A program made the translations under genes and the position numbers. Below are positions 3,374-53,431 of a DNA stretch of 64,000 nt, in pieces. Positions within the stretch are counted from its first letter, which is position 1, and each line of letters opens with the position of its first letter. The stretch lies in the NCBI GenBank assembly GCA_028718225.1, contig JAQUMI010000002.1, forward strand, positions 16-64,015, read 5' to 3'. The DNA comes from Candidatus Omnitrophota bacterium (GTDB lineage: Bacteria > Omnitrophota > Gorgyraeia > Gygaellales > Profunditerraquicolaceae). Below the pieces are notes generated by a model. That model had not been told where the DNA came from, did no database searches, and saw only the letters and a list, made by a program, of their open reading frames with translations.

Positions 3374-3378
3374 AAGAG

Positions 3379-4502: not shown

Positions 4503-4503
4503 G

Positions 4504-4842
4504 ATGATCGCTAAAGCTGAAGGAAAATTTTTAAGGGTTTCTCCGGGAAAGGTCCGGCTGGTTTTAGACCTTATCCGCGGGAAAGACGCATCCAGGGCCC
4601 AGGCGATACTTTTAAACATAAACAAACGGCCCAAGGAGCACCTGGTTAAGATTTTAAAATCCGCTGTTGCTAATGCCAAGGTTAAAGGGTTCAACCTTGA
4701 ACAGCTCTATGTATCAAAGGCCATTTGTAACCCGGGGCCGAGCTGGAAAAGGTTTAAAGCAGCGGCGTTCGGCAGGGCCCAGCCGATCTTAAAACGCACG
4801 GCGCATATAAAAATAGAATTAGATTTAAAATCGGGAGAATAA
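4504..4842 (+). CDS. rplV: 50S ribosomal protein L22
   Basis: 112 aa. Operon position between rpsS and rpsC. Confidence 0.92.
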   Translation: MIAKAEGKFLRVSPGKVRLVLDLIRGKDASRAQAILLNINKRPKEHLVKILKSAVANAKVKGFNLEQLYVSKAICNPGPSWKRFKAAAFGRAQPILKRTAHIKIELDLKSGE

Positions 4843-16373: not shown

Positions 16374-17549
16374 ATGCACATAGATACGGGGTTAGCCAGG
16401 CGCTTAAAAAATGTAAAACCTTCATCAACCCTCGCAATCACCTCTAAGGCTAAAAAATTAAAATCCGAAGGGTTTGATATAATAACCCTGGCCGCAGGCG
16501 AACCGGATTTTGACACCCCAGATTTCGTAAAGAGCGCCGCGATTGAAGCGATAAATTCCGGCTTTACCAAGTATACCCCTACCACAGGCATCCCGGATTT
16601 AAAGAAACTAATCTGCGAAAAATTCAAAAAAGACAATTCCCTGGAATATGCGCCTTCACAGATTGTTGTTTCCTGCGGGGCCAAGCACAGTATATTCAAC
16701 GCGCTTTTTGTCTTAATCAACCCCAAAGACGAGGTACTTATTCCTTCCCCTTACTGGGTAAGTTATCCTGAGATGGTTAATCTCTGCGAGGGTATTCCCC
16801 GGTTTATCCAAACTTCGCCCGGGAATAATTTTAAAATAACTCCCCGGGAACTATCCAGGAATATCAGCGCAAAGTCAAAAGTCCTTATTTTAAACACTCC
16901 GGCGAATCCGACGGGCTGCGTATATACGCAAGAGGAATTGAATCAGATTTCGGAAATCTGTGTAAAAAATAAGCTTCTCGTTATCAGCGATGAGATCTAT
17001 GAAAAACTTATTTATGACGGATTAAAGCATCTCTCCCTAGGGAGCTTAAATAAAGAAATCTCTGATTTGACGATTACCGTGAACGGTTTCTCCAAAAGTT
17101 TTTCCATGACCGGCTGGCGTTTAGGTTATTTAGGCGCTCCTGGCGCTATAGCGGAAGCGATTTCGCGCCTGCAGGACCACTCAACCTCTAACCCTAATTC
17201 TATCTCCCAGAAGGCTGGAATAGCCGCGCTCGGCGCTCCGGAGAGCTTCTACCAAAAAATCCGCCAGCAGTTTCAGGAAAGAAGGGATTATTGTATTGCC
17301 AGGCTTAAGGCCATGCCTAAAATAACGCCGGTAGTTCCCCAAGGGGCTTTCTATATTTTTTGTGATATATCCAAAACAAAGCTGGGCGCCATGGAATTCG
17401 CCAGGCAGTTGTTAGAAAAGAAATACTTGAGTGTTATTCCTGGAGACGGTTTTGGGGCGGACCATTATATCCGTATAAGCTTTGCTGCCAGCCAGGATAG
17501 CCTTAAAAAGGGGATGGATAGGCTGGAGGAGTGGTTAAAAGATGGGTAA
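16374..17549 (+). CDS. Class I PLP-dependent aminotransferase (aspartate aminotransferase-like)
   Basis: 391 aa with GEPDFDTP, NPTG and the PLP-lysine context FSKSFSMTGWRLGY. Confidence 0.85.
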   Translation: MHIDTGLARRLKNVKPSSTLAITSKAKKLKSEGFDIITLAAGEPDFDTPDFVKSAAIEAINSGFTKYTPTTGIPDLKKLICEKFKKDNSLEYAPSQIVVSCGAKHSIFNALFVLINPKDEVLIPSPYWVSYPEMVNLCEGIPRFIQTSPGNNFKITPRELSRNISAKSKVLILNTPANPTGCVYTQEELNQISEICVKNKLLVISDEIYEKLIYDGLKHLSLGSLNKEISDLTITVNGFSKSFSMTGWRLGYLGAPGAIAEAISRLQDHSTSNPNSISQKAGIAALGAPESFYQKIRQQFQERRDYCIARLKAMPKITPVVPQGAFYIFCDISKTKLGAMEFARQLLEKKYLSVIPGDGFGADHYIRISFAASQDSLKKGMDRLEEWLKDG

Positions 17550-18795
17550 AACGATAGCTGAAAAGATACTGAGTGCGCATGCCGGAAAAGAATTGAAGGC
17601 CGGCGATTTTGCCGTATGCAAAGTCGATTTTACCTTTGGCCAGGACGGAACAAGCGCGATTATCATTGACCGGATCAAAGAATTGGGAGTAAAACAGTTA
17701 AAAACTGATTTTTGCATGGTGATTGACCATAGCGCGCCTTCTCCAAGCGAAGGGGTCTCGCGAGTGCATAAAAAAATGCATAATTTTGCCAAGGAATTTA
17801 GGCAGCGGATTTTTGATATAGGCTGCGGCGTATGCCACCAGGTAATCCCGGAGTCGGGGAAGGCTTTAGCCGGCAATTTAATCCTGGGAGCAGATTCACA
17901 TACCTGCACCTATGGTGCTTTAGGTGTTTTTTCCACAGGCGTGGGCTCGACAGACCTGGCCATTGCCCTGGCCACAGGCAAAAATTGGTTCAAGGTGCCG
18001 GAAACTTTTAAGATTGTCGTAAAAGGAAAAGTTCCTAAAGGCATATTTGCTAAAGATATCATCCTGGATATTATCGGAAAAGTGGGCGCTGACGGAGCGA
18101 CTTACAAGGCAATTGAATTTTGCGGCCCGGTAATCGAGAAGATGGATATGGACGGCCGTTTGACCATGTGTAATATGGTAGTAGAGATGGGCGCCAAATG
18201 CGGATTTATGCCGCAGGATAAAACTACTTTTGCCTGGCTAAAATCCCGGAGTGTAAGGCGCAGTGTAATTAAGCCCGTAAGCGCAGATAAAGATGCCGAG
18301 TATGAAAAAATCCTGGAAATCGATATATCCAAGCTTAAAAGCCAGGTCTCTCTGCCGCATAGCGTAGACAAGGTAAGGCCGGCGGTAGAATTAAGTACGC
18401 TAAAGATTAATGAAGCATTTTTAGGTACCTGCACAAACGGAAGGTTGCAAGATTTAAAAATAGCTGCTAAAATACTTAAAGGCAGAAGAGTGGCTCCGGG
18501 CGTAAAACTTATTATCGCCCCCAGTTCGCGTTTGATTTTACTGGAAGCCATAAAGTTAAAATTGATCAATATTTTTGTCGAGGCGGGCGGGATAATCCTG
18601 GCTCCGGGATGCGGGCCTTGCGTGGGCACGCACAACGGTATACCCGCGGATGGAGAAGTAGTTATCTCTACCGCCAACAGGAATTTTAAAGGCAGGATGG
18701 GCAATCCCAGCGCCTTTATATACCTGGCTTCTCCGGCAACTGTGGCCGCCTCAGCAGTTAAGGGGTATATTACAGATCCGAAGAGCTTTATTTAA
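17542..18795 (+). CDS. Aconitase-family dehydratase large subunit (archaeal-type LeuC/HacA; substrate unassigned)
   Basis: 417 aa with GADSHTCTYGALG and the Fe-S cysteines in LGTCTNGR and PGCGPCVG. Confidence 0.85.
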   Translation: MGKTIAEKILSAHAGKELKAGDFAVCKVDFTFGQDGTSAIIIDRIKELGVKQLKTDFCMVIDHSAPSPSEGVSRVHKKMHNFAKEFRQRIFDIGCGVCHQVIPESGKALAGNLILGADSHTCTYGALGVFSTGVGSTDLAIALATGKNWFKVPETFKIVVKGKVPKGIFAKDIILDIIGKVGADGATYKAIEFCGPVIEKMDMDGRLTMCNMVVEMGAKCGFMPQDKTTFAWLKSRSVRRSVIKPVSADKDAEYEKILEIDISKLKSQVSLPHSVDKVRPAVELSTLKINEAFLGTCTNGRLQDLKIAAKILKGRRVAPGVKLIIAPSSRLILLEAIKLKLINIFVEAGGIILAPGCGPCVGTHNGIPADGEVVISTANRNFKGRMGNPSAFIYLASPATVAASAVKGYITDPKSFI

Positions 18796-18862: not shown

Positions 18863-19909
18863 ATGGAGATAAGGGAATTGCTTCTGATGTGTATTGAGAA
18901 GAACGCCTCGGATTTACATATAACCGAAAGTGAGCCTCCTATTTTACGTATTGACGGTTCGCTTAAGCGCACGAACCTTCCCGCGCTGGATAAGCATGAG
19001 CTGAAGAAGATGATTTATGGCATACTGAACAATTCTCAAAAAGAGGTTTTTGAAAGAGAGCTGGAGCTGGACTTTTCTCTCGCCCTTCCGGATTTAGACA
19101 GGTTCCGGACAAATATCCATATGCAAAAGGGTGCACCGGAAGGGGCATTCCGGCGTGTGCCGTTGGAAATACCTACGGTTGAAAAATTGGGACTTCCGCA
19201 GATTATCAGCGACCTGGCGCGTAAGCCTAACGGCTTAGTTTTGGTCACCGGGCCTACCGGTATGGGTAAGACTACGACCCTGGCTACAATGATTGACTTG
19301 ATTAATAAAGAGAGAGAATGTTTGATTATGTGCATAGAAGACCCGATCGAATTTGTCTTTAAGAATAATAAGAGTATTATCAAGCAAAGAGAGGTTTATT
19401 CTGATACGCGTTCTTTTGCCGCGGCCCTGATGCACACGTTGCGCCAGGACCCCAACGTCATTGTAGTCGGTGAAATGCGTGATCTGGAAACTATTTCTAC
19501 AGCCCTTACTGCTGCAGAAACCGGGCACTTGGTTTTAGCTACTTTGCATACTCCGGATGCGCCCCAGACTATTGAAAGAATTATCGATGTCTTTCCTCCG
19601 CATCAACAACAACAGGTAAAATTGCAGCTGGCTGATTGCCTGCAGGGGGTAGTTTCGCAACTATTACTCCCGCATGCTTCAGGCAAAGGCAGGGTCCTGG
19701 CTACAGAAATAATGATCGGTACTTCGGGGATAAGAAACCTTATCCGCGAACAGGAGATTGAACAGATCCCCACGCTCATGCAAACAGGCTCGCAATACGG
19801 AATGAAGACTATGGATAAATGCTTAAAAGAGCTGACCCAAAGGGGCGATATTACCCTGGATGTTGCGCTCTCTAAAGCTAAAAACGCGGATGAATTCAGG
19901 CAACTATGA
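18863..19909 (+). CDS. pilT: Type IV pilus retraction ATPase PilT
   Basis: 348 aa with Walker A GPTGMGKTT, IEDPIEF, GEMRD, ATLHT and the GIRNLIRE motif. AGGAGG SD upstream. Confidence 0.9.
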   Translation: MEIRELLLMCIEKNASDLHITESEPPILRIDGSLKRTNLPALDKHELKKMIYGILNNSQKEVFERELELDFSLALPDLDRFRTNIHMQKGAPEGAFRRVPLEIPTVEKLGLPQIISDLARKPNGLVLVTGPTGMGKTTTLATMIDLINKERECLIMCIEDPIEFVFKNNKSIIKQREVYSDTRSFAAALMHTLRQDPNVIVVGEMRDLETISTALTAAETGHLVLATLHTPDAPQTIERIIDVFPPHQQQQVKLQLADCLQGVVSQLLLPHASGKGRVLATEIMIGTSGIRNLIREQEIEQIPTLMQTGSQYGMKTMDKCLKELTQRGDITLDVALSKAKNADEFRQL

Positions 19910-20406
19910 AATTAATCGGCCAGGCTTTAAAATTAGGCGATAATATCAATACGGATTTTATTATTTCGGGAAGGTATAAGTTCGCCATTACCGATATGAA
20001 AGAACTGGCCAAGCATATTATGGAGGATATTGATCCCGGATTTGCGGCAAAGATAAAGCCGGGTAAATCTATGATTGTTGCCGGTAATAATTTCGGTATG
20101 GGGTCCTCGCGCGAACAGGCGCCCCTGGTCATAAAGGAAGCCGGGATTGTGGCGGTATTGGCTAAGAGCTTCGCGCGTATTTTCTACCGGAATGCGTTTA
20201 ATATCGGGCTAGCCTTGATCGAGACAGATACGGATAAAATCGGCGAGAACGATCTGCTCGAGATAGACCTGGATAAAGGGATTGTCAGAAATACGTCAAA
20301 AAATATTGACCTTATCTTAAAGCCATTCCCCAAATTTATGCAGGAGCTGCTTAAGGAAGGCGGTATAATAAACTATTACCGTAAACACGGAGAGTTGAAA
20401 GTTTAA
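19906..20406 (+). CDS. Aconitase-family dehydratase small subunit (LeuD/HacB type)
   Basis: 166 aa with [14 protein letters not shown] and the swivel-domain motif [14 protein letters not shown]. The start overlaps the pilT stop. Confidence 0.85.
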
Positions 20407-24656: not shown

Positions 24657-25823
24657 ATGGCTATTGATTTTAAAAAAGAATTAGAAACTGCCGCACGCAA
24701 CATGATTTTCGTGCATGACCCGGACTTGCTTATCAAGATAATCGTGCGGATGGTGGTTGATAAAGTGCAGGTTGAGCACGCCAGCATACTCATGTATAAA
24801 CCGGACCGTCAGGCGTATGTGCTCACTGTTTCCGGAGGATCGCTGGCAAAAAAAATACCTATCGGCCTGGCTGGTTTTGACAAAGATGATTCCCTGATCC
24901 GTTTTTTCAGGGAGCGCGGCAGCCGGCTCTTATTTAACAGCGATGTTCTTACTCTGGAGGGCGCACAGGCCTACCTGAAAACAGGTCAGGCTAAAGAACG
25001 CCTGAAGCATCTTTTGGCAGACGTACTCTATCAGATGAAGATGCTGGAAACGGTAACTTGCATACCAAGCTATTTCAGGGATGAGTTGTTGGGCGTATTA
25101 CTGTTGGGCAGAAAGAAAAACGGAAAAAGGTTCCTGCGGGGAGAGCTGGATTTTTTTGAGGCCCTGGCTTCCAATATGTCTATGGCGATAAGAAACGCCA
25201 ATCTTTTCAAGGAGCTTAAATCCGAACTGGATAAAAAGCACCAGCTTTTTATGCGCACAACTATTGCTTTGGTTGCTGCCATAGAAGCGAAAGATAATTA
25301 TACGCACGGGCACACTACCCGGGTGACTAACTTAAGCCTGGAAATCGCTAAGAGGCTCTCCCGGAAGAATAAGAAGGTCTGGGACAACAAATTTATTGAA
25401 AAACTCCATATTGCCAGCCTGCTTCATGATATCGGCAAAATCGGCGTCCCCGAACATATACTTAATAAAAGAGGGGCCTTGACTATAGGCGAAAGGAACA
25501 AAATCAAAGAACATCCTTTAATCGGGGTAACCATTCTTAAACCTATAAAAGAATTAGAGCAGGCTTTAGTCGGAATAAAATATCACCATGAGCGGCCGGA
25601 TGGCCGGGGGTATCCGGAGGGCTTAAAAGGCGACCAGATCCCTCTGGTTGCTTCTATTATATCGGTAGCTGACTCTTTTGACGCTATGACTACGGATAGG
25701 CCGTACCGAGCGGCCCTGTATAAAAATGAAGCTATAAATGAAATCCGGAAATTGAGTAACCTGCAATTTAATCCCCGCGTAACCGAAGCATTTCTGGAAT
25801 TATGCCAGGAAGGTAAACTCTAA
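24657..25823 (+). CDS. GAF-like sensor / HD-GYP c-di-GMP phosphodiesterase
   Basis: 388 aa with HGHTTRV, HDIGKIGVP and HHERPDGRGYP (the HD-GYP signature). The N-terminal roughly 190 aa are GAF-like. Confidence 0.82.
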   Translation: MAIDFKKELETAARNMIFVHDPDLLIKIIVRMVVDKVQVEHASILMYKPDRQAYVLTVSGGSLAKKIPIGLAGFDKDDSLIRFFRERGSRLLFNSDVLTLEGAQAYLKTGQAKERLKHLLADVLYQMKMLETVTCIPSYFRDELLGVLLLGRKKNGKRFLRGELDFFEALASNMSMAIRNANLFKELKSELDKKHQLFMRTTIALVAAIEAKDNYTHGHTTRVTNLSLEIAKRLSRKNKKVWDNKFIEKLHIASLLHDIGKIGVPEHILNKRGALTIGERNKIKEHPLIGVTILKPIKELEQALVGIKYHHERPDGRGYPEGLKGDQIPLVASIISVADSFDAMTTDRPYRAALYKNEAINEIRKLSNLQFNPRVTEAFLELCQEGKL

Positions 25824-40672: not shown

Positions 40673-41864
40673 ACCTAAGGGTATGCGCATTTTAAGCGCA
40701 ACAAAGGAAAAAGATTTAAAGCAGGTTATGCAAGATATCCAGGTTGACCCCTACGGAATCAAGATTATGCTGCCTAAAGCTCAGGGGTATATTTTAAAAA
40801 TCAATGCCTTAAATAATATATCCGCCAATATCCTCAAGCAGGAGATGCTTTCCTTGGGGGGTGATGTGGCGGTTAGCCGCAATGCCTTAACCGGTAAAGC
40901 CAGAAAAACGGATTGTTTAATTATGGGCAACCTTGCTCAATTGGGCAGCTTGAGCAATAAATTACATAAGCAGCCATTTGGCCTGGAGAGGCTGGCTAGA
41001 GATTTGAGCCTGGCTCTAAAAAATTACCGGCGGGAAAATCTTACCCTGGACCTGGGCAGGCATAGGCTTTGCCTGGGAGCACGTTCGCATATAATGGGCA
41101 TTGTTAATGTTACTCCGGATTCGTTCAGCGGAGACGGATTTGGCGATAAACGCAAAGCCGTTGAATACGCCGAGAAGCTGGTCCGGGACGGCGCGGATAT
41201 CCTGGACGTGGGAGGCGAATCTTCCCGCCCGGGCGCAAAACCGGTTTCGGTCAAAGTAGAACTCTTAAGGACCATACCCGTAATTAAGGCCCTGGTCAGA
41301 AAAATCAAAGTGCCTGTATCGGTAGATACCTGCAAGGCAGAAGTTGCCCGTCAGGCTTTGGATAACGGCGCGAGTTTAGTTAATGACATAACCGGATTAA
41401 AAAATATAAAAATAGCCAAAATTGCCAGCCGTTATAAGGCCGGGGTAGTGATTATGCATATGCGGGGTAACCCGCGTTCAATGCAAAAAAAACCTCAATA
41501 CCTGTGTTTAATCGATGAAATTATTGCCTACTTAGCCGAAGCTATAGATAGAGGAGTGGCAGCCGGAATAGCTAAAGAAAAAATTATTATTGATCCGGGT
41601 ATTGGTTTTGGCAAAACCCTGGAGCATAATCTGGAAATATTAAAGAGACTAAGAGAGTTTAAGGTTTTTGGCTTACCGATTCTATCCGGGACTTCGCGTA
41701 AGGCATTTATCGGTAAAATACTGAATGCCCCACCGGAGAAGAGGATTTTTGGTACGCTAGCCTCCTGTGTTGTAGCGAGTGAGAATGGAGCGGATATTGT
41801 CAGGGTCCACGATGTGAAAGCGGTAAAACAGGCTTTACTAATTAAAGACAGGATAAGGGAATGA
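40659..41864 (+). CDS. folP: Dihydropteroate synthase with an uncharacterised N-terminal extension of about 120-135 aa
   Basis: 401 aa. The DHPS core begins near IMGIVNVTPDSFSGDG (about aa 145); DVGGESSRPG and GTSRKAF are present. Confidence 0.88.
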   Translation: MTLPKPKGMRILSATKEKDLKQVMQDIQVDPYGIKIMLPKAQGYILKINALNNISANILKQEMLSLGGDVAVSRNALTGKARKTDCLIMGNLAQLGSLSNKLHKQPFGLERLARDLSLALKNYRRENLTLDLGRHRLCLGARSHIMGIVNVTPDSFSGDGFGDKRKAVEYAEKLVRDGADILDVGGESSRPGAKPVSVKVELLRTIPVIKALVRKIKVPVSVDTCKAEVARQALDNGASLVNDITGLKNIKIAKIASRYKAGVVIMHMRGNPRSMQKKPQYLCLIDEIIAYLAEAIDRGVAAGIAKEKIIIDPGIGFGKTLEHNLEILKRLREFKVFGLPILSGTSRKAFIGKILNAPPEKRIFGTLASCVVASENGADIVRVHDVKAVKQALLIKDRIRE

Positions 41865-42622
41865 ATTTGGCCGATATTTTTTTCCATTGGAAAGCTATAA
41901 TTGAAATACTAATTTTATGGTTTGTACTTTACCAGGTGATGCTTTTTTTTGAAGGTACGCGCGCCATCCAGGTTGTACGCGGAATAGCGCTTATCCTGGT
42001 CGCCTTTTTCTTTTTTCAAAAGCTGGGCCTGGAAAGATTAGACTGGCTGTTCAGAAACTTTTTCGCTACTTCGGTTATCGCCCTATTGATCATCTTCCAT
42101 CCCGAAATAAGACAGGGCCTGGCCCGGCTGGGCCAGCGTAATATCTTTGTAAGCGCTATGGACGAGGAAGAATTGGACCAGATGCTTAAAGAAATATGCA
42201 AGGCCGTCGAGAGCCTTTCCGGTTATAAAATTGGTGCCTTGATTGCCGTAGAGATGAATGATTCGCTCTCGGGATACGTAGAAAGCGGCGTGCTTATCGA
42301 TTCTAAAATTTCTTCAGAATTAATTCAGGCAATATTCACGCCCAACAATCCGTTGCATGACGGCGGATTGATTATCCAGCACGGCAGGATTACCAGTGCC
42401 GGAGCGCTTTTTCCGCTTGTGCAAAGGCTCGATATTGACCGTATATTTGGGACGCGCCACCGGGCCGCTTTGGGGCTGAGCGAAGAGACCGACGCGCTTA
42501 TAATTGTAGTTTCTGAGGAAAGACAGGACATCTCTCTGGTTTACCGGGGAAAATTACATTCTAATTTAAACCACGAAAATTTATTCCTGCAGGCTAAAGA
42601 AATAATCAAGGCGAGGAAATAA
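41861..42622 (+). CDS. cdaA: Diadenylate cyclase CdaA (DisA_N domain, membrane-anchored)
   Basis: 253 aa with three N-terminal TM segments, HDGGLII and GTRHRAALGLSEETDA. Confidence 0.9.
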   Translation: MNLADIFFHWKAIIEILILWFVLYQVMLFFEGTRAIQVVRGIALILVAFFFFQKLGLERLDWLFRNFFATSVIALLIIFHPEIRQGLARLGQRNIFVSAMDEEELDQMLKEICKAVESLSGYKIGALIAVEMNDSLSGYVESGVLIDSKISSELIQAIFTPNNPLHDGGLIIQHGRITSAGALFPLVQRLDIDRIFGTRHRAALGLSEETDALIIVVSEERQDISLVYRGKLHSNLNHENLFLQAKEIIKARK

Positions 42623-44643: not shown

Positions 44644-44716
44644 GCCGGCGTAGCTCAGTTGGTAGAGCGTCTGTTTTGTAAACAGATGGTCGGGGGTTCG
44701 ATTCCTCTCGCCGGCT
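44644..44716 (+). tRNA. tRNA-Thr (anticodon UGU)
   Basis: Hand-folded cloverleaf with acceptor GCCGGCG/CGCCGGC, anticodon arm TCTGT-TTTGTAA-ACAGA and T-loop TTCGATT. 73 nt, no encoded CCA. Starts 1 nt after the nnrD stop. Confidence 0.9.
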
Positions 44717-44733
44717 TTTAAAGGTAAATGAAC

Positions 44734-44816
44734 GGGTAGGTACCCAAGTGGCCAAAGGGGGCAGACTGTAAATCTGCTGCACTTGTGCTTCAGAGGTTCG
44801 AATCCTCTCCTGCCCA
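44734..44816 (+). tRNA. tRNA-Tyr (anticodon GUA), long variable arm
   Basis: Acceptor GGGTAGG/CCTGCCC (one G-U pair), anticodon arm GCAGA-CTGTAAA-TCTGC, T-loop TTCGAAT. 83 nt. Confidence 0.88.
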
Positions 44817-44905
44817 ATTAAATTTTCCGGCAAGGAAAATTAAATAACACTGAGTGAGCATTGCGAGGCGACAAGCCGAGCAGCGAAGGAAGTGCCTAGA
44901 GCGAT

Positions 44906-44976
44906 GCGGGAGTAGTTCAGTGGTAGAACAATAGCCTTCCAAGCTATATATGGGGGTTCGATTCCCCTCTCCCGCT
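44906..44976 (+). tRNA. tRNA-Gly (anticodon UCC)
   Basis: Acceptor GCGGGAG/CTCCCGC, anticodon arm ATAGC-CTTCCAA-GCTAT, T-loop TTCGATT. 71 nt. Confidence 0.9.
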
Positions 44977-45008: not shown

Positions 45009-45758
45009 ATGAGCGAAGAATTATTAAAACCGGTTTTTGTGGACGCCTTTGATCTGGATGATGCCTGGTTTCAATGCCTCTCCGAAATACTTGAGCACGG
45101 CCATGTCTATACCATAACCAGGGGCAGTTATGAAGGTCAGAAGCGCCTGGAGTTTGATTTTGCGGCTGTGCGGGTAAAAAAACCCGGCCACCAGATCATT
45201 CCGATAATCCCAGAAGGAATGTCTATTCCGGCACCTACGGATATGGATTATATCCAAGGGTATTTAAGCTACCTGCTTACCGGCGCCAAGACCGAAACCG
45301 AAGATTATACTTATGGTGAAAGGCTGGTTGACCCTAAGGTCAGGCTTAAGCAAAATATAGACGGCAAAGATATGACCAAAGAGTTACCGCTTGATGTCAA
45401 CCAGATAGAAGAGGTAATTAAACTTTATAAAGAGAAAGGTTTCGGGACAAACCAGGCAGTGATGGAAATCGGTATGCCTTCAGATATAAAATTAATTGAT
45501 CCGCCCTGCCTTAGGCTTATTGATACCAGGGTGCGTTATGGTAAACTGCATTTTATTTTATATTTTCGCTCCTGGGACCTTTGGGGAGGTTTCCCTTCCA
45601 ATCTCGGAGGTCTGCAGTTAGTTAAACAATATATGGCCGAAGAAATTGGGGTAGATGACGGCGAAATCATCGCCGTAAGCAAAGGTTTGCATCTTTATGA
45701 TTATGCCTGGGATTTGGCTAAACTGAGGACCAATAAACTTAACCTGGCTATCAAATAA
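45009..45758 (+). CDS. Thymidylate synthase-fold enzyme, divergent (methanogen/archaeal-type ThyA-like)
   Basis: 249 aa. DPPCLRLIDTRVRYGKLHFILYFRSWDLWGGFPSNLGGLQL...GLHLYDY aligns with ThyA LPPCH...GKL...YQRSxDxxLGxPFNI...HLY, including the catalytic Cys, the Arg-Ser, the Asp, the Asn and His/Tyr. Confidence 0.7.
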   Translation: MSEELLKPVFVDAFDLDDAWFQCLSEILEHGHVYTITRGSYEGQKRLEFDFAAVRVKKPGHQIIPIIPEGMSIPAPTDMDYIQGYLSYLLTGAKTETEDYTYGERLVDPKVRLKQNIDGKDMTKELPLDVNQIEEVIKLYKEKGFGTNQAVMEIGMPSDIKLIDPPCLRLIDTRVRYGKLHFILYFRSWDLWGGFPSNLGGLQLVKQYMAEEIGVDDGEIIAVSKGLHLYDYAWDLAKLRTNKLNLAIK

Positions 45759-45759
45759 T

Positions 45760-46143
45760 ATGGAAAATATACCCGGACCCGAAGAGCGCAGAGAATCCGC
45801 CAGGTTTGACTATGCTACTCCTTTAGCTTATAAGGTATGTAAAAAAGAAACTCTGAGCAAATTACTTACAGGCTATACTTCTAATATCAGTACTGCGGGA
45901 CTTCTTTGTAATTTCCGGGAAACAGTCAATCCGGAAGATGTACTTTGGCTTTCTTTTGATCGGGGGGTATTAAGCGTCTGCGCAGAGCTGGAAAAGAGGG
46001 TTTTTATCTATCAAAACGGCATCATCGGCAAGGTAGTCCGGGTTGAGCCAAAGGGTTATGATAATTATGATGTAGGGATAAAGTTTCTTACTCGCGAAGA
46101 GCAAAATTTTGTTAAACAGTCCTTAGGAGAAGATGAAAAATAA
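45760..46143 (+). CDS. Stand-alone PilZ domain protein (c-di-GMP receptor), copy 1
   Basis: 127 aa with RRESAR (RRxxxR) and NISTAG ([D/N]xSxxG). Confidence 0.8.
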   Translation: MENIPGPEERRESARFDYATPLAYKVCKKETLSKLLTGYTSNISTAGLLCNFRETVNPEDVLWLSFDRGVLSVCAELEKRVFIYQNGIIGKVVRVEPKGYDNYDVGIKFLTREEQNFVKQSLGEDEK

Positions 46144-47155
46144 ACCGGATATAGTTATTTTGGGCGACGGGGGATGGGGCACGACCTTAAGCGTGCTTCT
46201 TGCGCGTAAAGGATTCTCGGTGACTATCTGGGGGGCCTTTGCCGAAAATATTGCCTATATGGATAAAAAGAGGGAAAACAAAAAATTCCTGCCCGGAATT
46301 AAAATACCTAAAGAAATAACTTTAACCAGCAACCTAAAGGGAGCTCTGCAAAATAAAGACCTGGTAGTTTTAGCGGTCCCTTCGCAATATATGCGTTCAG
46401 TTCTAAGGAAGGCCTCTAAGCTGGATTATCCGCGTCAGGCAATATATTTAAGCGTGACCAAGGGGATAGAAATGGGCACGTTAAAGCGGGTCTCCGAGGT
46501 AATCCAAACTGAACTGGGCGCTGTAAAATTAGCGGTGCTTTCCGGGCCGACTATCGCCCACGAAGTTGCCAAAGGAACGCCTACGGTTGCGGTAGTTGCT
46601 TCGCCTGACCGAAAAACAAACAAATTTTTGCAGGATATTTTCATGACGGGCAGGTTCAGGATATATACTAACACGGATGTTGTCGGCGTAGAGTTAGGGG
46701 GAAGCCTGAAAAATATCATTGCTATTGCCTGCGGGATCTCTGACGGTCTGGGTTTCGGAGCAAATACTAAAGCTGCGATCCTGGCGCGCGGCTTAGCTGA
46801 GATTTCCAGGTTAGGCGCTGCTATGGGCGCCGGAAGCAGGACTTTTAGCGGAATAAGCGGTTTAGGCGATTTAGTGACCACTTGTATCAGCCCGCTCAGC
46901 AGAAACAGGTTCCTCGGGGAAGAAATTGGCAAAGGCAAAACCTTAAAACAGATCTATGCTGAAATGCAAACCCCTGCCTGCCGGCAGGCAGGGGTTGCCG
47001 AGGGGGTACCCACAGCAAAATCTGCCTATGGTTTAAGTTTAAAGTATAGAGTAGATATGCCCATCACCAGGGAAGTCTATAACGTACTTTATAAAAATAA
47101 GCCCGCGCTTAAGGCATTTAAAGATTTGATGGCTCGGGAAAAAAAAGAAGAGTAG
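46133..47155 (+). CDS. gpsA: NAD(P)H-dependent glycerol-3-phosphate dehydrogenase
   Basis: 340 aa with GDGGWGT, GPTIAHEVA, LKNIIAIACG and VAEGVPTAKS. Contains a 7-aa insertion encoded by a palindrome. Confidence 0.93.
   Translation: MKNKPDIVILGDGGWGTTLSVLLARKGFSVTIWGAFAENIAYMDKKRENKKFLPGIKIPKEITLTSNLKGALQNKDLVVLAVPSQYMRSVLRKASKLDYPRQAIYLSVTKGIEMGTLKRVSEVIQTELGAVKLAVLSGPTIAHEVAKGTPTVAVVASPDRKTNKFLQDIFMTGRFRIYTNTDVVGVELGGSLKNIIAIACGISDGLGFGANTKAAILARGLAEISRLGAAMGAGSRTFSGISGLGDLVTTCISPLSRNRFLGEEIGKGKTLKQIYAEMQTPACRQAGVAEGVPTAKSAYGLSLKYRVDMPITREVYNVLYKNKPALKAFKDLMAREKKEE
46969..46996. repeat. 28-bp perfect GC-rich palindrome inside gpsA
   Basis: AACCCCTGCCTGCC|GGCAGGCAGGGGTT is an exact reverse complement about its centre. 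It is in frame and encodes part of QTPACRQAGV. Confidence 0.95.
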
Positions 47156-47162
47156 AATAATA

Positions 47163-47237
47163 CGGGGCGTGGCTCAGTTTGGCTAGAGCGCTTGAATGGG
47201 GTTCAAGAGGTCACAGGTTCAAGTCCTGTCGCCCCGA
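47163..47237 (+). tRNA. tRNA-Pro (anticodon GGG)
   Basis: Acceptor CGGGGCG/CGCCCCG, anticodon arm CTTGA-ATGGGGT-TCAAG, T-loop TTCAAGT. 75 nt, lying 7 nt after the gpsA stop. Confidence 0.88.
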
Positions 47238-47248
47238 ATAAATTTGGC

Positions 47249-47650
47249 ATGGAAGATAAAAACAACAAACAGGAAAAAAGAAGCGTCAAACGCATCCAAA
47301 AGTCGCTGATTATTCAATTTTCAGTTGACTCCGGTGACCCCCTGACCCGGAAGTGGGATGTTTCTTCCATAAGGGATATCAGCGAGAAAGGCGTGAGTTT
47401 CCTGGCCAGCGGGAAAATTGCTTTAGGAGACCTCCTGCAAATGCTTATCAAAATACCACTTAGGCCTTTTGAATGGTTTGAAGTCAGCGGTAAAGTAGTA
47501 GCTAGGGAAGAACCCAAAATAAAAAGAGAGGATAACGATTTTAATGTTTCTGTCGTGAGGGTGATTTTTACAGACTTAAAAGAAGAGCAAAAAATGTTGA
47601 TCCGAGAATATATTGCCTGGTGCTTGTTAAAAGACGGAGGTAAAAAATGA
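47249..47650 (+). CDS. Stand-alone PilZ domain protein, copy 2
   Basis: The track ORF (TTG 47192) runs through tRNA-Pro. I prefer ATG 47249 (MEDKNNKQEKRSVKR...). It carries KRSVKR (RxxxR) and DISEKG (DxSxxG). Confidence 0.75.
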   Translation: MEDKNNKQEKRSVKRIQKSLIIQFSVDSGDPLTRKWDVSSIRDISEKGVSFLASGKIALGDLLQMLIKIPLRPFEWFEVSGKVVAREEPKIKREDNDFNVSVVRVIFTDLKEEQKMLIREYIAWCLLKDGGKK

Positions 47651-48009
47651 GTTATGCCGGCCCGGAAAGAAGGAGCCATCCCAGGGTCATGGGGCGTTTT
47701 ATCGTATCTTACCGCATAATGAATGAAATTGATAGTATGGATATAAGCCAGACCAAAAATATCAGTATGGGCGGGATGCTCCTGACTACTAACAGGAATT
47801 TTGAGCCCGGAGTAAATCTTGCGCTGGAGATCAGGCTTCCTTTTGATCCGCACCCCATCATGCTTATCGGTAAAGTCCTGGAATCCCGCGAAATAATGCA
47901 GGATATGATTTACGATACGCGGATCGAATTCCTGGCGGTTGATGAAAAACATAAAAAAATCATCGGTGAAACCGTAGGTTACTACGTAAAGAAAGAAAAG
48001 GACGAATAA
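47647..48009 (+). CDS. Stand-alone PilZ domain protein, copy 3
   Basis: 120 aa with RRSHPR (RRxxxR) and NISMGG (NxSxxG). ATGA overlap with copy 2 and TAATG overlap with hom. Confidence 0.8.
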   Translation: MSYAGPERRSHPRVMGRFIVSYRIMNEIDSMDISQTKNISMGGMLLTTNRNFEPGVNLALEIRLPFDPHPIMLIGKVLESREIMQDMIYDTRIEFLAVDEKHKKIIGETVGYYVKKEKDE

Positions 48010-49304
48010 TGAAAAGAATTAATGCGGGTTTAATCGGGTTTGGTAATGTCGGTTCGGGGATAATAAAGATCCTGCGGGACAGGAAAGCATTGCTCAGTGA
48101 AAAAACCGGCCTGGAAATAAACGTCAAAAGAGTTTGCGATCAGGATATCGTTTCCAAGCGCAATGTCAGCTTAGACAAAGCGATGCTTACCCGGGATGCC
48201 CGGGGACTCCTTAATGACCCGCAGATAGATATTTTAATTGAATTGATCGGAGGCATACACCCGGCCAAGGAGTTTATCATTGAAGCCTTAAAGAAAGGAA
48301 AACATGTCGTTACCGCCAATAAGGCGCTTCTTGCGCTGCACGGGCAAGAATTATTTACCGAGGCAGCTGACCGGGGCAAGAGTATTTATTTTGAGGCATC
48401 TGTCGGCGCAGGCATACCAATTATCAAATCTTTACGCGAAGGATTAGTCGCTAACAGGTTTAACGGTATTTTAGGCATTGTCAACGGGACCTCCAACTAT
48501 ATTTTATCCTCGATGTCTAAAAATAATTGTAGTTTTCAGGAGGCCCTTAAGGAAGCCCGGGCAAAGGGTTTTGCGGAAAAAGACCCGACTCTGGATATAG
48601 AAGGGATGGATTCGGCCCATAAATTAATCCTGCTTACTTATCTGGCGTTTGGCAGGTTTGTGGAATTAAAAGACGTATTTATCGAAGGGATTTCGCGTAT
48701 TTCCCTGGCGGACGTGAATTATGCCAAGGAAATGGGTTTTGAAATAAAGTTACTGGCTATCGCTAAAAAAGAAGGTTCGGATTTAGAAATAAGAGTGCAC
48801 CCCACGCTTGTCCCCCAGGATCATCTATTGTCTTCAGTTGACGGCGTGTTCAATGCTATTTATGTTTCCACTGATTTGGCGGGGAATTTGTTGTTCTACG
48901 GTCCGGGTGCTGGACAGTCATCCGCAGCTTCGGCTGTAGTTTCGGATTTAGTAGATTTGACCCAGGATATTAAGGCCGGTTTCTTCCGGCCTACCTTAAA
49001 AATCGTAGCGGATAAGACCGTCAAAAAGATACGCAAGATCGATGATTTTGAAAGCCGCTATTATATCCGCTTTATGGCGCGGGACTTATCGGGCGTGCTG
49101 GCCAGGATATCCGGCGTATTGGCTAAATTCGGTATCAGTATTGCCTCGGTTACCCAGAAAGAGCGCAGCAAAACCCAGCTTGTCCCGATAGTCATGCTCA
49201 TACATGAAGCCAGGGAGAAGAACATGCGCGATGCTTTAAGTATAATCGACCGGTTGGAAGCAATAAAAGAAAAATCCGTAGCCATCAGGATGGAGGAAGC
49301 GTGA
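48009..49304 (+). CDS. hom: Homoserine dehydrogenase (with a C-terminal ACT domain)
   Basis: 431 aa with [15 protein letters not shown] and [11 protein letters not shown]-like ([11 protein letters not shown]). Confidence 0.93.
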
Positions 49305-50362
49305 AATACCAGGGGATAATTGACAGATATAGAAAGCATCTTCCGGTTACAGAGAAAACACCGGTAATCACCCTAAACGAAGGGAATACTCCTTTAATTT
49401 ATTCCGGGCATTTAAGCAGGCTTTTAGGAAACGGCTTTGAAGTTTATCTAAAATATGAGGGCCTTAATCCTACCGGGTCTTTTAAGGACAGGGGTATGAC
49501 TATGGCTATATCCAAAGCCTGCGAGGAAGGCTCAAGCGCGGTAATCTGCGCTTCAACCGGAAATACTTCTGCTTCGGCAGCTGCCTATGCCGCCAAGGCA
49601 GGCATCAGATGTATTGTGCTTATACCCAGCGGGGCGGTTGCTTTAGGTAAATTAAGCCAGGCGTTGATACACGGCGCGCAGGTTTTAGCGGTAAAAGGAA
49701 ATTTTGACGACGCTTTGAATTTAGTGCGGGAGATTACTGCTCGATACCCGATCACTCTGGTAAACTCACTTAATCCTTACCGTATTGAAGGCCAGAAAAC
49801 CGCGAGTTTTGAAATTTGCGATTTTTTAGGCGAACCCCCGGACTTACAAATTATGCCCGTAGGTAATGCCGGTAATATTACCGCGTACTGGAAAGGATAT
49901 AAAGAATACTATAAAGCGGGTATATCTAAAAAATTACCGAAGATGCTGGGCTTTCAAGCTCAGGGCGCTGCCCCCATTGTCAGGGGCCATCCGATAAAAA
50001 ACCCCGAAACGCTCGCTACCGCTATCCGTATCGGTAATCCGGCGAGTTGGAAACAAGCGGAAGAAGCCAGAGATGAATCCGGCGGCCTGATTGATATGGT
50101 TTCGGATGATGAAATCCTGCAGGCTTATAAAATGCTGGCTGCCGGCGATGGAGTATTCGTTGAACCGGCCTCGGCGGCATCGATTGCCGGATTAATCAAA
50201 CTCAATAAAAACGGTTACTTTGAAAACACGGGGCCGGTAAAAATAACCTGCATATTAACCGGGCACGGATTAAAAGACCCGGACAGGGCAATAAAAAGTA
50301 TAAAAAAGCCAAAATTAATCAAGCCTGAGATAAGGGCTTTACTCAAAGAGATTGGCTACTAA
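49301..50362 (+). CDS. thrC: Threonine synthase
   Basis: 353 aa with a GTG start overlapping the hom stop. The PLP-lysine context is [10 protein letters not shown]. Confidence 0.92.
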
Positions 50363-50987
50363 CCTAAGCGGCAAAAGAGTTTTAATCACAGCCGGGCCGA
50401 CCTGGGTCCCTTTAGACGGAGCCAGGGTAATCAGTAACACCGCCAGCGGCGAAACCGGTACTTTATTAGCACAAACATTGGCGCAGAAGGGCGCCAGGGT
50501 TACGCTTCTGCTTGGGCCGGTCAAGGCCGGTTATAAAAATAATTCAGTAAGGGTTATAAATTTTAAATTCTTTAACGAGCTGCGCTCTTTGTTAAAAAAT
50601 GAGCTTGAGAAAAAACGCTATGCTATCATAATCCATTCTGCCGCGGTTGCGGATTATGCGCCAAGCGGCCCGGACCAACGCGGTAAGATAAGCTCCGGGC
50701 TTAAGGCCTTAAGGCTGAATCTTAAGCCCACCCCTAAAATAATTGATTCTCTGCGTAAGACAAACCCGGATTCTTTTTTAATCGGATTTAAGTTTGAGCC
50801 GGACCTAGAAAGAGATGAGCTAATCGGGAGAGCAAACCGCCTGTTAAAGAGAGCCGGTTTAGATTTGGTAGTAGCTAACAGCCTGTGCAAAAAAAAATAT
50901 ACCGCCTATTTGATAGGCGCGAAAAAACATTCTGGCCCATTTTTCTCCAAAAAAAGTATGGTTAACAACCTGGTCAGGCTAATATGA
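50352..50987 (+). CDS. coaB: Stand-alone CoaB-like protein (phosphopantothenate--cysteine ligase family, no CoaC domain)
   Basis: 211 aa with a TTG start. [36 protein letters not shown] and LVVANS align with the E. coli Dfp CoaB half. SSGKMG is replaced by ASGETG. Confidence 0.6.
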
Positions 50988-52186
50988 AATACATTGTTTT
51001 AGTTTGCGACGGAATGAGTGACTATCCCCTTCAGGAATTAGGTGAACGCACGCCCCTGGAGGCGGCAAAAACCCCAAACCTGGATTTCATTGCCAGGCAC
51101 GGCAGGCTGGGCCGGGTAAGGACCGTACCTGCTGGCTTTATTCCGGGTTCAGACGTAGCCCAAATGAGTATTTTTGGCTATGATCCTAAAAAATATTACA
51201 GCGGCAGAGGGCCGCTGGAGGCTGCCAACCTGGGCGTAGAACTGGAAGACGACGATGTGGCTTTTCGCTGTAACCTCGTGACTGCTTTTGCGGACACGCT
51301 TACGGATTACAGCGCCGGGCATATCAGCACGAAAGAAGCGACAATCCTGGTTAAGTTTATTGACCAGCATTTAGGGACCAACCGCATTAAATTTTATCCC
51401 GGCGTAAGCTACCGGCACCTGATGGTAATTAAGCGCGGCGCGGAAGAACACCTTGAGGCTCTCCGCTGCCTGGCACCGCATGATATCACAGGCAAAAATA
51501 TTGCCAAAAACTTACCTAAAGGGGACGGTGCGGATATCCTGATCAAGCTCATGGAAGAATCGCGTAATATTTTAGTCAAACATGAAATAAACCTGGTCCG
51601 CATTGACTTAAAAGAAAATCCGGCAAATATGATTTGGCTCTGGGGCCAGGGGAAAAAACCGGCGATGCCGAAATTCAATGATAAGTATAATTTAACCGGC
51701 AGCGTTATTTCGGCCGTAGACCTAATTAAAGGTCTAGGCAGGCTCCTGGGTCTGGAAGTCATTAATGTCCCCGGGGCAACGGGTTATTACGACACTGACT
51801 ATAAAGCAAAAGCCCGGGCTGCGGTAAAGTTACTGGAAAAGGATGATTTTGTATTCGTGCATGTTGAAGCGGCTGATGAGGCAGGTCACAATGGGGATCT
51901 AAGGGAAAAAATTATCGCCATTGAAAGATTTGACCAGCTGGTCTTAGGCACTATATTAAAAGCGTTTAAGGGAAAACGTAATTTAAGGATTCTAGTCCTG
52001 CCGGACCATGCTACTCCGGTTGCGCTCAAGACCCATACCGCCGACCCCGTGCCTTTCGGCATATTCGGACAGGATATTATTGCCAGAGGATTTTTAAATT
52101 ACAGCGAAAAAGAAGCCCAAAAATCCGATCTTTACTTTGATCAAGGCTATGAGTTAATGGATTATTTCATCAAAGACACGGGTTAA
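50984..52186 (+). CDS. Archaeal-type cofactor-independent phosphoglycerate mutase family protein (ApgM-like; candidate non-orthologous homoserine kinase)
   Basis: 400 aa with [15 protein letters not shown] and FVHVEAADEAGHNGD, metal-site motifs of the alkaline-phosphatase superfamily. ATGA-coupled to the CoaB-like gene within the thr operon. Confidence 0.7.
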   Translation: MKYIVLVCDGMSDYPLQELGERTPLEAAKTPNLDFIARHGRLGRVRTVPAGFIPGSDVAQMSIFGYDPKKYYSGRGPLEAANLGVELEDDDVAFRCNLVTAFADTLTDYSAGHISTKEATILVKFIDQHLGTNRIKFYPGVSYRHLMVIKRGAEEHLEALRCLAPHDITGKNIAKNLPKGDGADILIKLMEESRNILVKHEINLVRIDLKENPANMIWLWGQGKKPAMPKFNDKYNLTGSVISAVDLIKGLGRLLGLEVINVPGATGYYDTDYKAKARAAVKLLEKDDFVFVHVEAADEAGHNGDLREKIIAIERFDQLVLGTILKAFKGKRNLRILVLPDHATPVALKTHTADPVPFGIFGQDIIARGFLNYSEKEAQKSDLYFDQGYELMDYFIKDTG

Positions 52187-52210: not shown

Positions 52211-53431
52211 ATGGGCAAGCAGTTGATTGTGCAGAAATTTGGCGGTTCTTCGGTGGCCGATGTCGAAAGAATACAGTGCGTAGCCCAGAGAGTGGCCAGC
52301 TATCGAAAAAAAGGGCATGACCTGGTAGTTGTCGTCTCGGCTTTAGGCGATACAACCGATGAATTGATTGAACTGGCGGATAAAATAAACCCCGAGCCCT
52401 CTGAGCGCGAGATGGACATGCTATTGTCTACGGGAGAACAGATTTCAGTCGCGCTTTTGGCCATGGCTATTCATAAACTAGGTTTTGAAGCCATATCTTT
52501 TACCGGAGCCCAGGTGGGCATTATTACCGATACCAGCCATACCCGCGCCAGGATCATCAAGATAAATGCCGATAAGATTAAAGAAGCCTTAAAGCAGGGG
52601 AAAATCGTTATTGTCGCCGGTTTTCAGGGCGTGACCCTGAATCAGGATATTACCACTTTAGGCCGCGGCGGCTCGGACCTCACTGCCGTTGCCCTGGCTA
52701 AAGAACTAAGGGCAGATGCCTGCGAAATTTACACCGACGTAAGAGGCATTTATACCACTGACCCGAGGATTGAGCCCAGGGCAAAAAAGATAGAAGCGCT
52801 TACCTATGATGAGATGTTGGAGATGGCTTCCCTCGGCGCTCAGGTAATGCAGGCGCGCTCCATTGAGGTGGCTAAAAAATTTGACGTCCCAATACATGTA
52901 CGCTCAAGTTTCGAAAACGCAACCGGAACTTTGATTATCAAGGAGGTTAAAAATATGGAAGATGTGGTAGTTTCAGCCATAACCTTAAATAAAGGAGAAT
53001 CTAAGATTACTGTTTGCGATGTCCCTGACCGCCCCGGGGTGGCTGCCAGGATATTCAACGAACTGGCATCTTGCGGGGTAAGCGTAGATATGATCGTGCA
53101 GAACGTCAGCCACCTGCGTTCGACGGACATATCTTTTACCGTCAGCAAGGCCGCCTCGCCCAAGACGCTCAAAATAACCAAAAAAGTGTCCAAGGGCATC
53201 GGCGCGGGTGAAGTTTTGGAAGATAACGCTATAGCCCGTGTTTCTATCGTCGGCGTAGGTATGAAATCTCATCCGGGCGTAGCCGCCAAGATGTTTGAAG
53301 TCTTGGCCGATAAAAAAATCAATATTGAGATGATATCTACTTCCGAAATAAGTATATCCTGTATAATTCAAAAAAAGTTTGCTGAAACAGCGCTAAAATC
53401 GCTGCATGAAAAATTCGGGTTAGGAAAATAA
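52211..53431 (+). CDS. lysC: Aspartate kinase (two C-terminal ACT domains)
   Basis: 406 aa with VQKFGGSSV, LGRGGSD and TDVRGIYTTDPR. Confidence 0.94.
   Translation: MGKQLIVQKFGGSSVADVERIQCVAQRVASYRKKGHDLVVVVSALGDTTDELIELADKINPEPSEREMDMLLSTGEQISVALLAMAIHKLGFEAISFTGAQVGIITDTSHTRARIIKINADKIKEALKQGKIVIVAGFQGVTLNQDITTLGRGGSDLTAVALAKELRADACEIYTDVRGIYTTDPRIEPRAKKIEALTYDEMLEMASLGAQVMQARSIEVAKKFDVPIHVRSSFENATGTLIIKEVKNMEDVVVSAITLNKGESKITVCDVPDRPGVAARIFNELASCGVSVDMIVQNVSHLRSTDISFTVSKAASPKTLKITKKVSKGIGAGEVLEDNAIARVSIVGVGMKSHPGVAAKMFEVLADKKINIEMISTSEISISCIIQKKFAETALKSLHEKFGLGK

Follow-up and report, generated by a model that had tools for sequence, protein, structure and literature searches.

Three PilZ genes hold conserved positions beside gpsA and hom in Omnitrophota

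PilZ receptors are best known for the control of motility, pili and exopolysaccharide synthesis. Here we describe three PilZ genes, PilZ1, PilZ2 and PilZ3, that lie among genes of primary metabolism in Candidatus Omnitrophota bacterium, a member of a phylum of uncultured, often ultra-small and possibly host-dependent bacteria. The genes are located in a 64,000-nucleotide stretch of contig JAQUMI010000002.1 (metagenome-assembled genome GCA_028718225.1), which we refer to as the window. PilZ1 directly precedes gpsA, and PilZ2 and PilZ3 stand between a proline tRNA gene and hom. We found this placement to be conserved over deep divergence within Omnitrophota, and it is very probable that the PilZ genes are not only conserved in position but also co-expressed with their neighbours. 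As receptors PilZ1-3 are ordinary, whereas the conserved metabolic setting of their genes is undescribed.

Three old families of single-domain PilZ proteins

All three genes are present on the plus strand, in agreement with the sequence-only reading, an earlier inspection of the DNA letters made without database searches. PilZ1 (45760..46143) encodes a protein of 127 aa, PilZ2 (47249..47650) one of 133 aa and PilZ3 (47647..48009) one of 120 aa, and each consists of a single PilZ domain. Comparison with the Pfam profile PF07238 (PilZ), which has a gathering cut-off of 22.5 bits, resulted in 32.4, 37.5 and 34.9 bits for PilZ1, PilZ2 and PilZ3, with matches covering positions 1-92, 2-101 and 1-97 of the 102-position profile, respectively. 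No further PilZ open reading frame (ORF) was detected in the window with a custom hidden Markov model (HMM) built from the orthologs. Pfam and NCBIfam searches of the three proteins identified neither a PilZN or YcgR-type domain nor a recognisable DNA-binding domain. The proteins are already named ‘PilZ domain-containing protein’ in NCBI. We disregarded the name ‘YcgR’ given to homologs at JGI as an automatic label; the PilZN-type domain has no match in the window proteins. Also rejected was an ORF of 212 aa on the minus strand (47314-47952), antisense to PilZ2 and PilZ3, since it has no Pfam match and the two plus-strand ORFs that it covers are PilZ genes whose orthologs are conserved. It is most likely a shadow ORF of the coding strand.

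The canonical PilZ motif is defined as RxxxR plus [D/N]hSxxG, where h is hydrophobic (10.1101/814665). Both parts can be read from the translations of PilZ1 (RRESAR and NISTAG), PilZ2 (KRSVKR and DISEKG) and PilZ3 (RRSHPR and NISMGG), with isoleucine as the hydrophobic residue each time. This confirms that all three carry both halves of the binding signature for cyclic di-GMP (c-di-GMP), exactly as quoted in the sequence-only reading. A motif scan of the orthologs found the pair in 29 of 30 PilZ1 sequences, the sole exception being a frameshift fragment, and in the alignment R11, R15, S44 and G47 are invariant (30/30). Among PilZ2 orthologs RxxxR occurs in 18 and the complete pair in 16 of 19 sequences, while all 45 PilZ3 orthologs contain RxxxR and 38 of them NxSxxG. 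Based on the domain matches and motifs, we are confident in predicting that PilZ1-3 are canonical stand-alone PilZ proteins that bind c-di-GMP.

Two features of the ortholog alignments stand apart. In PilZ1, cysteines C27 and C50 are invariant (30/30) and C74 is present in 27 of 30 sequences, which is unusual for a PilZ barrel; the conserved cysteines could mark a redox or metal site. In PilZ3, the sequences with a replaced motif serine (L004, L009, L013, L021, L022, L027 and L031; for example NIGMGG or NLCLGG) are otherwise highly conserved.

Pairwise identity among the three proteins is only 22-26% (23% for PilZ2 and PilZ3), and they are therefore not recent duplicates, as had also been proposed from the sequence. 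PilZ1, PilZ2 and PilZ3 are three old, separate ortholog families.

To compare folds, we used structure models. A PilZ domain is expected to form a six-stranded beta-barrel followed by one long C-terminal helix. The AlphaFold2 model of PilZ3 (pLDDT, the predicted local distance difference test, 72.6) shows a beta-barrel and then a C-terminal helix, with five strands of at least three residues (19-25, 43-48, 57-63, 71-84 and 88-97) and the helix at 100-119. In a Foldseek search, its best matches in the PDB were the PilZ structures of MotI, XCC6012, BcsA and Alg44, with weak E-values (4.5e-3 and above); MotI (5vx6) ranked first, and XAC1133 and the PilB-PilZ complexes ranked low. A sequence search of the PilZ proteins against solved structures returned nothing below E = 0.68. 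The model of PilZ1 (pLDDT 53.7) was set aside as unusable and did not enter the fold search.

Conserved placement and gene fusions in relatives

To assess how often the placement recurs, we sampled 80 loci anchored on Hom, an anchor that is unbiased with respect to PilZ, and annotated them by phmmer, an iterated PilZ HMM and ARAGORN. In the window, hom (48009..49304) encodes homoserine dehydrogenase with a C-terminal ACT domain (Homoserine_dh 208 bits, NAD_binding_3, ACT), and gpsA (46133..47155) encodes NAD(P)H-dependent glycerol-3-phosphate dehydrogenase (NAD_Gly3P_dh_N 160 bits, NAD_Gly3P_dh_C 178 bits). The best-matching relatives of Hom belong to Omnitrophota, and the exact PilZ3 sequence is also present in GCA_028711525.1. 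The sample comprised 57 loci from Omnitrophota, 56 of them assessable, and 23 from Desulfobacterota, Nitrospirota and similar phyla.

A PilZ gene directly precedes hom in 46 of the 56 Omnitrophota loci, down to about 51% Hom identity, and in none of the 23 loci from other phyla. According to start-codon estimates, the gap between the two genes is at most 5 nt in 30 of the 46. The most distant examples (L030, L032, L033, L038 and L063) were confirmed by Pfam. A second sample, anchored on PilZ3, contained 80 metagenome loci, 72 of which extend at least 300 nt downstream, and hom is the next gene in 72 of these 72. This includes 12 loci in which the stop-to-stop PilZ3 ORF runs over tRNA-Pro; hom follows in each. 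Of the 44 loci that could be assessed for it, 28 have PilZ1 upstream of gpsA. PilZ1 also remains with gpsA where the thyA-like gene that precedes it in the window is absent (L014, L018 and L026), and lies in the same gene order as in the window in PilZ1-anchored contigs. The adjacencies that the sequence-only reading had noticed in a single genome are thus widespread in Omnitrophota and not peculiar to this assembly.

The surrounding genes are conserved as well. In the Hom-anchored Omnitrophota loci thrC always adjoins hom, and nearly all gpsA-containing ones keep the position of tRNA-Pro, with L063 as an exception. Most related loci have a tRNA-Thr/Tyr/Gly cluster in front of the thyA-like gene. 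Between tRNA-Pro and hom, relatives carry from zero to three PilZ genes. In ten Omnitrophota loci hom has no PilZ gene directly upstream: five show another upstream context and five keep the order gpsA-tRNA-Pro-hom. Among the latter, hom starts 21-94 nt after tRNA-Pro in L029, L036, L040 and L041, and a gap of 747 nt with an ORF of 215 aa separates the two in L075.

Other genes were seen in or near these slots. In L040 a different PilZ protein occupies the position just 5′ of gpsA (3163-4527); it has 454 aa and combines an AMIN domain with a C-terminal canonical PilZ domain (34.7 bits). In the distant Omnitrophota loci L036, L038, L043, L061, L065 and L066, a PlsY-like gene, recognised by eye from the motif GSGNxGATN and with no family search, precedes and overlaps gpsA. 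This is the classical lipid pairing and takes the place of the thyA-like gene and PilZ1. Some relatives contain a further, degenerate PilZ-like ORF between apgM and lysC (L014 10246-10626, L018 12419-12748, L024 10211-10627 and L025 4764-5204). Its second motif, D[ND]I[NT]xxG, has no serine; three of the four sequences are under the Pfam cut-off and the remaining one reaches only 19.7 bits.

In some relatives the neighbours are joined in one polypeptide. Two proteins combine PilZ1 and GpsA in frame: P0241, with 466 aa, is encoded at L026 3968-5437 and found on three contigs from separate sources, and P0242, with 463 aa, is encoded at L085 2415-3806 in a different metagenome-assembled genome (GCA_030018895.1) in the same context. 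They are 77% identical to each other and both retain the PilZ motifs. Each has tyrosine in place of C74, the third of the conserved PilZ1 cysteines. In addition, several proteins of 230-240 aa with two PilZ domains in tandem emerged when 1.84 billion representative proteins were searched with a profile. In P0361 (231 aa, at least 10 contigs) and P0364 (239 aa), the N-terminal half is PilZ2-like and the C-terminal half PilZ3-like, with RxxxR and [D/N]xSxxG kept in both halves. The genes for these PilZ2::PilZ3 fusions are located directly upstream of hom in the same syntenic block (L166 266-985; L167 4001-4696; L168; L169). Of all our observations, these fusions hint most strongly at a joint action of PilZ1 with GpsA and of PilZ2 with PilZ3.

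The three families diverge at different rates. Orthologs of PilZ1 are 56-65% identical where Hom is 72-75% identical, and for PilZ3 an identity of about 70% corresponds to about 74% in Hom. PilZ3 remains at 55-58% in one distant clade, with Hom at 55-57%, and drops to 32-36% in other distant clades. Across most of this span its conservation exceeds that of CoaB and resembles that of GpsA, and PilZ3 is the best conserved of the three. PilZ2 evolves fast and is patchily present, with 27-37% identity where Hom is 71-74% identical. The slow evolution of PilZ3 and PilZ1 shows strong purifying selection on both.

Two gene units and a possible docking mechanism

The junctions of the PilZ genes are exactly as the sequence-only reading had read them from the DNA. 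The thyA-like gene ends at 45758 and PilZ1 starts with ATG at 45760, leaving a spacer of 1 nt; PilZ1 overlaps gpsA by 11 nt (46133-46143); PilZ2 and PilZ3, separate ORFs in different frames, share ATGA (47647-47650); and PilZ3 and hom share one nucleotide in TAATG, at 48009. What had been missed is tRNA-Pro(GGG) (47163..47237, plus strand; ARAGORN, and Rfam 62.9 bits), which lies 7 nt 3′ of the gpsA stop and 11 nt 5′ of the PilZ2 ATG. Since this tRNA separates gpsA from PilZ2, PilZ2 and PilZ3 are the first cistrons after it and head the hom unit, whereas they had been described as lying inside an operon. Two units can therefore be distinguished: the first contains the tRNA-Thr/Tyr/Gly cluster, the thyA-like gene, PilZ1 and gpsA; the second contains tRNA-Pro, PilZ2, PilZ3, hom, thrC, coaB, a proposed homoserine kinase gene and lysC.

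The remaining genes of both units are on the plus strand too. In the first unit, tRNA-Thr(TGT), tRNA-Tyr(GTA) and tRNA-Gly(TCC) occupy 44644..44976 (ARAGORN and Rfam) and end 32 nt before the thyA-like gene (45009..45758), which encodes an atypical thymidylate-synthase-like protein (Pfam Thymidylat_synt, 40 bits). This protein is 78-100% identical across loci in which Hom drops to 52%, and is below every NCBIfam thymidylate synthase cut-off, the best match being the methanogen-type TIGR03283 (100.9 vs 174.55 bits). In the second unit, hom is followed by thrC (49301..50362), an ORF for threonine synthase of the PALP family (PALP was recorded for the identical gene in L081), and by a coaB-like gene (50352..50987) for a phosphopantothenate-cysteine ligase domain protein (Pfam DFP, 140.5 bits), whose NCBIfam coaBC and coaB matches are below their own cut-offs. 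Next come a gene of the apgM family (50984..52186; TIGR02535 553.8 bits vs a cut-off of 446.3, PRK04200 565 bits), the proposed alternative homoserine kinase, and lysC (52211..53431) for aspartate kinase with ACT domains (Pfam AA_kinase 186.9 bits and ACT). The identities previously given for gpsA, hom with its ACT domain, thrC, the CoaB-type DFP gene and the apgM gene all stand. As the apgM-like protein passes TIGR02535, the second unit amounts to a threonine operon that begins with two PilZ genes and has coaB inserted, and from hom and thrC to lysC it looks like a complete threonine operon that uses a non-canonical kinase. Adjacency of hom and apgM was likewise seen in the Desulfobacterota loci L050-L069.

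How would PilZ proteins act in these units? As the intervals of 7 nt before and 11 nt after tRNA-Pro leave no room for a promoter, each unit would be co-transcribed, tRNAs together with enzyme genes, and the overlapping junctions may couple translation. PilZ2 and PilZ3 would form a two-barrel pair. Upon binding c-di-GMP, PilZ1 would dock on GpsA, and PilZ2/PilZ3 on Hom or another aspartate-pathway enzyme, tying the supply of glycerol-3-phosphate and threonine to the level of the second messenger. That PilZ1-3 are fixed cistrons of two conserved Omnitrophota units and dock, upon c-di-GMP, on proteins from the same transcript is the reading we favour, tentatively, with almost as much to be said for it as against it. 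Of its parts, action of PilZ1 on GpsA is conceivable but doubtful, and action of PilZ2/PilZ3 on threonine-pathway enzymes is rather unlikely. The boldest version would place primary metabolism of Omnitrophota under direct c-di-GMP control by dedicated adaptors, with PilZ1 as an allosteric partner of GpsA, which provides glycerol-3-phosphate for membrane lipids, and PilZ2/PilZ3 acting on the ACT enzymes Hom and LysC as a two-barrel module that is synthesised at a constant ratio to them from a single transcript led by the tRNA. We consider this version unlikely on balance; if true, c-di-GMP signalling would have an output branch not described before.

A number of observations weigh against docking on the neighbouring enzymes, and the first group concerns spacing and placement. 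Mechanical ORF calling resulted in 78 genes on the plus strand and 75 adjacent same-strand pairs without a tRNA between them; 25 of these pairs overlap and 28 are 0-10 nt apart, so that 53 of 75 (71%) lie within 10 nt. The median intergenic gap is 3 nt, about 95% of the window is coding, nearly the entire 64 kb is on one strand, and unrelated functions are interleaved all along it. Overlaps and abutments are therefore the norm and no evidence of special coupling. Tight spacing carries no weight here, and we rejected start/stop overlap as a sign of such coupling, together with the earlier proposal that the PilZ genes are threaded into operons by overlapping codons in an unusually tight way. In two sampled relatives, gene order is the same throughout a block that exceeds 20 kb (tilS-ftsH-folP-cdaA-pdxJ-acpS-...-lysC-leuA-valS), so PilZ adjacency may be a matter of inheritance alone; gpsA and hom, for which no functional link is known, also keep their own proximity to each other. 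Loci without PilZ genes exist, with hom lacking an upstream PilZ in 10 Omnitrophota loci and gpsA lacking PilZ1 in 16 of 44, where distant clades have plsY-gpsA instead, so that PilZ proteins are dispensable for both enzymes. The best 120 of 7871 GpsA-containing matches included just two clusters of PilZ1::GpsA fusions, and a PilZ-Hom fusion was absent among the top 150 representatives, the longest of which has 293 aa.

Several of these points suit the main rival explanation, which is that the placement reflects inherited synteny only. PilZ1-3 would then be genuine c-di-GMP adaptors with targets elsewhere, such as type IV pilus ATPases, chemotaxis or secretion, and their genes would stay in place as part of a housekeeping block that is long, compact and oriented in one direction, where the upstream tRNA genes might also provide for steady expression. 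Besides the compactness, the collinear block and the dispensability of PilZ genes in some lineages, this is favoured by the five loci that keep gpsA-tRNA-Pro-hom even without PilZ genes and by the interleaving of unrelated functions, such as pilT between leuC-like and leuD-like genes or coaB in the threonine genes. Known stand-alone PilZ proteins usually act on motility or secretion partners. Omnitrophota also commonly possess small pilZ homologs, for instance 3′ of giant genes (10.1101/2023.11.21.568195). Inherited synteny is less easily reconciled with a PilZ1::GpsA fusion kept across 23% amino-acid divergence with intact motifs, with PilZ3 orthologs that are never away from hom (72/72), with a PilZ3 about as conserved as Hom and more than CoaB, or with PilZ slots that persist while other slots of the block freely gain and lose accessory genes. 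We regard inherited synteny alone as a real, if not the expected, possibility.

A second group of unfavourable observations concerns the ligand. We found no GGDEF (diguanylate cyclase) or EAL domain in the roughly 53 window proteins scanned, which comprise all called genes from 16.4 kb onward and two upstream, and the serine of NxSxxG is changed to G or C in 7 of 45 PilZ3 orthologs. Both would also agree with the possibility that the PilZ genes encode degenerate or re-purposed folds that do not bind c-di-GMP, like Xanthomonas XAC1133 and Pseudomonas PA2960, and serve as constitutive structural partners or bind another ligand. The serine-less PilZ-like ORF between apgM and lysC of some relatives, below the Pfam cut-off, fits this too, as does a nearby gene for a CdaA-type diadenylate cyclase (41861-42622; DAC 130 bits plus a CdaA_N transmembrane region). 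That gene is located 3 kb upstream of the tRNA cluster, within the conserved block folP-cdaA-pdxJ-acpS, and the lineage therefore probably also uses cyclic di-AMP. Against non-binding folds, the motif pair is intact in PilZ1-3 and nearly invariant in their orthologs, whereas known non-binding PilZ proteins lack these motifs (10.1101/814665). The window also encodes a GAF and HD-GYP protein, a candidate c-di-GMP phosphodiesterase (24657..25823, plus strand; HD_5 120.9 bits, GAF; motifs HD and HHERPDGRGYP), which suggests that the cell uses c-di-GMP, and GGDEF domains occur in giant proteins of Omnitrophota (10.1101/2023.11.21.568195). We therefore consider non-binding folds quite improbable.

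The third point concerns expression: a promoter and terminator scan gave counts equal to the shuffled expectation and was uninformative. Rfam identified only four tRNAs as RNA elements in 42-55 kb, and no conserved leader or riboswitch. This bears on the possibility that the PilZ proteins, once loaded with c-di-GMP, control how strongly gpsA or the threonine genes are expressed by attaching to DNA or RNA of the unit in which they are encoded. A precedent exists in Borrelia PlzA, for which c-di-GMP-dependent binding to the glpFKD promoter and 5′ untranslated region (UTR) is described in PMC9915621. PilZ2 and PilZ3 come first in their unit and together resemble a two-domain PilZ protein, as in the fusions P0361 and P0364. 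However, PlzA consists of PilZN3 and PilZ whereas the window proteins are canonical single barrels in which Pfam and NCBIfam recognised no DNA-binding domain; a conserved leader or riboswitch was missing, and the PilZ1::GpsA fusion fits action at the protein level better. Regulation of this type is improbable, and like non-binding folds it is less likely than docking on partner proteins or inherited synteny.

The window also contains pilus genes. A PilT/PilU-family ATPase gene, pilT (18863-19909; TIGR01420, 463 bits), is flanked by the gene of a large subunit resembling aconitase/LeuC (17542-18795) and that of a LeuD-like small subunit (19906-20406), with which it shares 4 nt, and pilin-like genes at 29016 and 63426 have the N_methyl motif only. 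These genes are 16-27 kb from the PilZ genes (pilT 26 kb) amid unrelated housekeeping genes, and the domain scan showed no flagellar genes. The sequence-only reading had combined the HD-GYP gene, pilT and the pilins into a c-di-GMP/pilus output layer without a cyclase. The HD-GYP gene at 24657 and the lack of a cyclase among the scanned proteins hold, and the layer itself is mere co-occurrence in 64 kb. We rejected a clustered c-di-GMP/pilus module because its presumed members are dispersed among unrelated housekeeping genes. The HD-GYP gene is window context only and not linked to the PilZ genes, and nothing found in the window supports a link between the PilZ genes and pili.

Comparison with known systems

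To our knowledge, there is practically no description of PilZ proteins that directly control core biosynthetic enzymes. Our literature search found nothing that connects PilZ with homoserine dehydrogenase, and no report of a conserved PilZ-hom or PilZ-gpsA linkage, of a PilZ position directly behind tRNA-Pro, or of a PilZ::GpsA fusion; the PilZ family and the tandem PilZ-PilZ architecture are already known (10.1101/814665). If docking on the neighbouring enzymes is true, a phylum-wide link of c-di-GMP receptors to lipid-backbone and threonine genes would give an idea of how growth in Omnitrophota is tied to lifestyle signals. Should inherited synteny alone explain the placement, the finding shrinks to three ordinary PilZ genes in a compact genome. 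Two natural fusions and dozens of paired orthologs fit for co-evolution analysis provide handles on the hypothesis, and the three window proteins, being small and soluble, should lend themselves to expression.

Among single-domain adaptors, the window proteins resemble MapZ (PA4608) of Pseudomonas aeruginosa in their length of about 120 aa, in RxxxR and [D/N]hSxxG, and in a predicted barrel with C-terminal helix, and they would likewise be expected to act by c-di-GMP-dependent docking on a partner protein. Unlike MapZ-type adaptors, their genes are fixed beside gpsA and hom and not beside chemotaxis, pilus or flagellar genes, and their sequences match no solved PilZ structure below the E-value given above. 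They differ from the type IV pilus proteins PA2960 and XAC1133, partners of PilB and FimX that lack the binding motifs, attach to the N-terminus of PilB and belong to or cooperate with the pilus assembly system, in that their motifs are intact and no pilus genes are located within 16 kb. MotI (5vx6) is the best structural match of the PilZ3 model; unlike the flagellar brake proteins YcgR and MotI, the window proteins have 120-133 aa, a single domain, no PilZN match and no flagellar context.

PilZ-PilZ tandems have been described for Bradyrhizobium Bll4394 and Blr5568 and Sinorhizobium SMc00999, and are mostly alphaproteobacterial (10.1101/814665). PilZ2 and PilZ3 resemble them in being adjacent (ATGA) and, in relatives, one polypeptide (P0361 and P0364). 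Unlike in these tandems, PilZ2 and PilZ3 of the window are separate ORFs with 23% identity.

With regard to metabolism, Borrelia burgdorferi PlzA is likewise a PilZ-family receptor tied to glycerol and glycerol-3-phosphate metabolism (PMC9915621), and thus a precedent for connecting c-di-GMP with this metabolic branch. Unlike PilZ1, PlzA is a two-domain (PilZN3-PilZ) nucleic-acid binder that is neither beside nor fused to gpsA, and its sequence relationship to the window proteins is limited to the domain family. The closest parallel to the fusions of relatives is provided by BcsA cellulose synthase and Alg44, in which, as in P0241 and P0242, a canonical PilZ domain is joined to an enzyme chain. 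Unlike in BcsA and Alg44, PilZ in these fusions is N-terminal, its partner is not a membrane exopolysaccharide synthase but a soluble NAD(P)H dehydrogenase that serves lipid-backbone synthesis, and in the window PilZ1 and gpsA are separate, overlapping genes. The fused arrangement nevertheless follows the logic of allosteric c-di-GMP control in BcsA.

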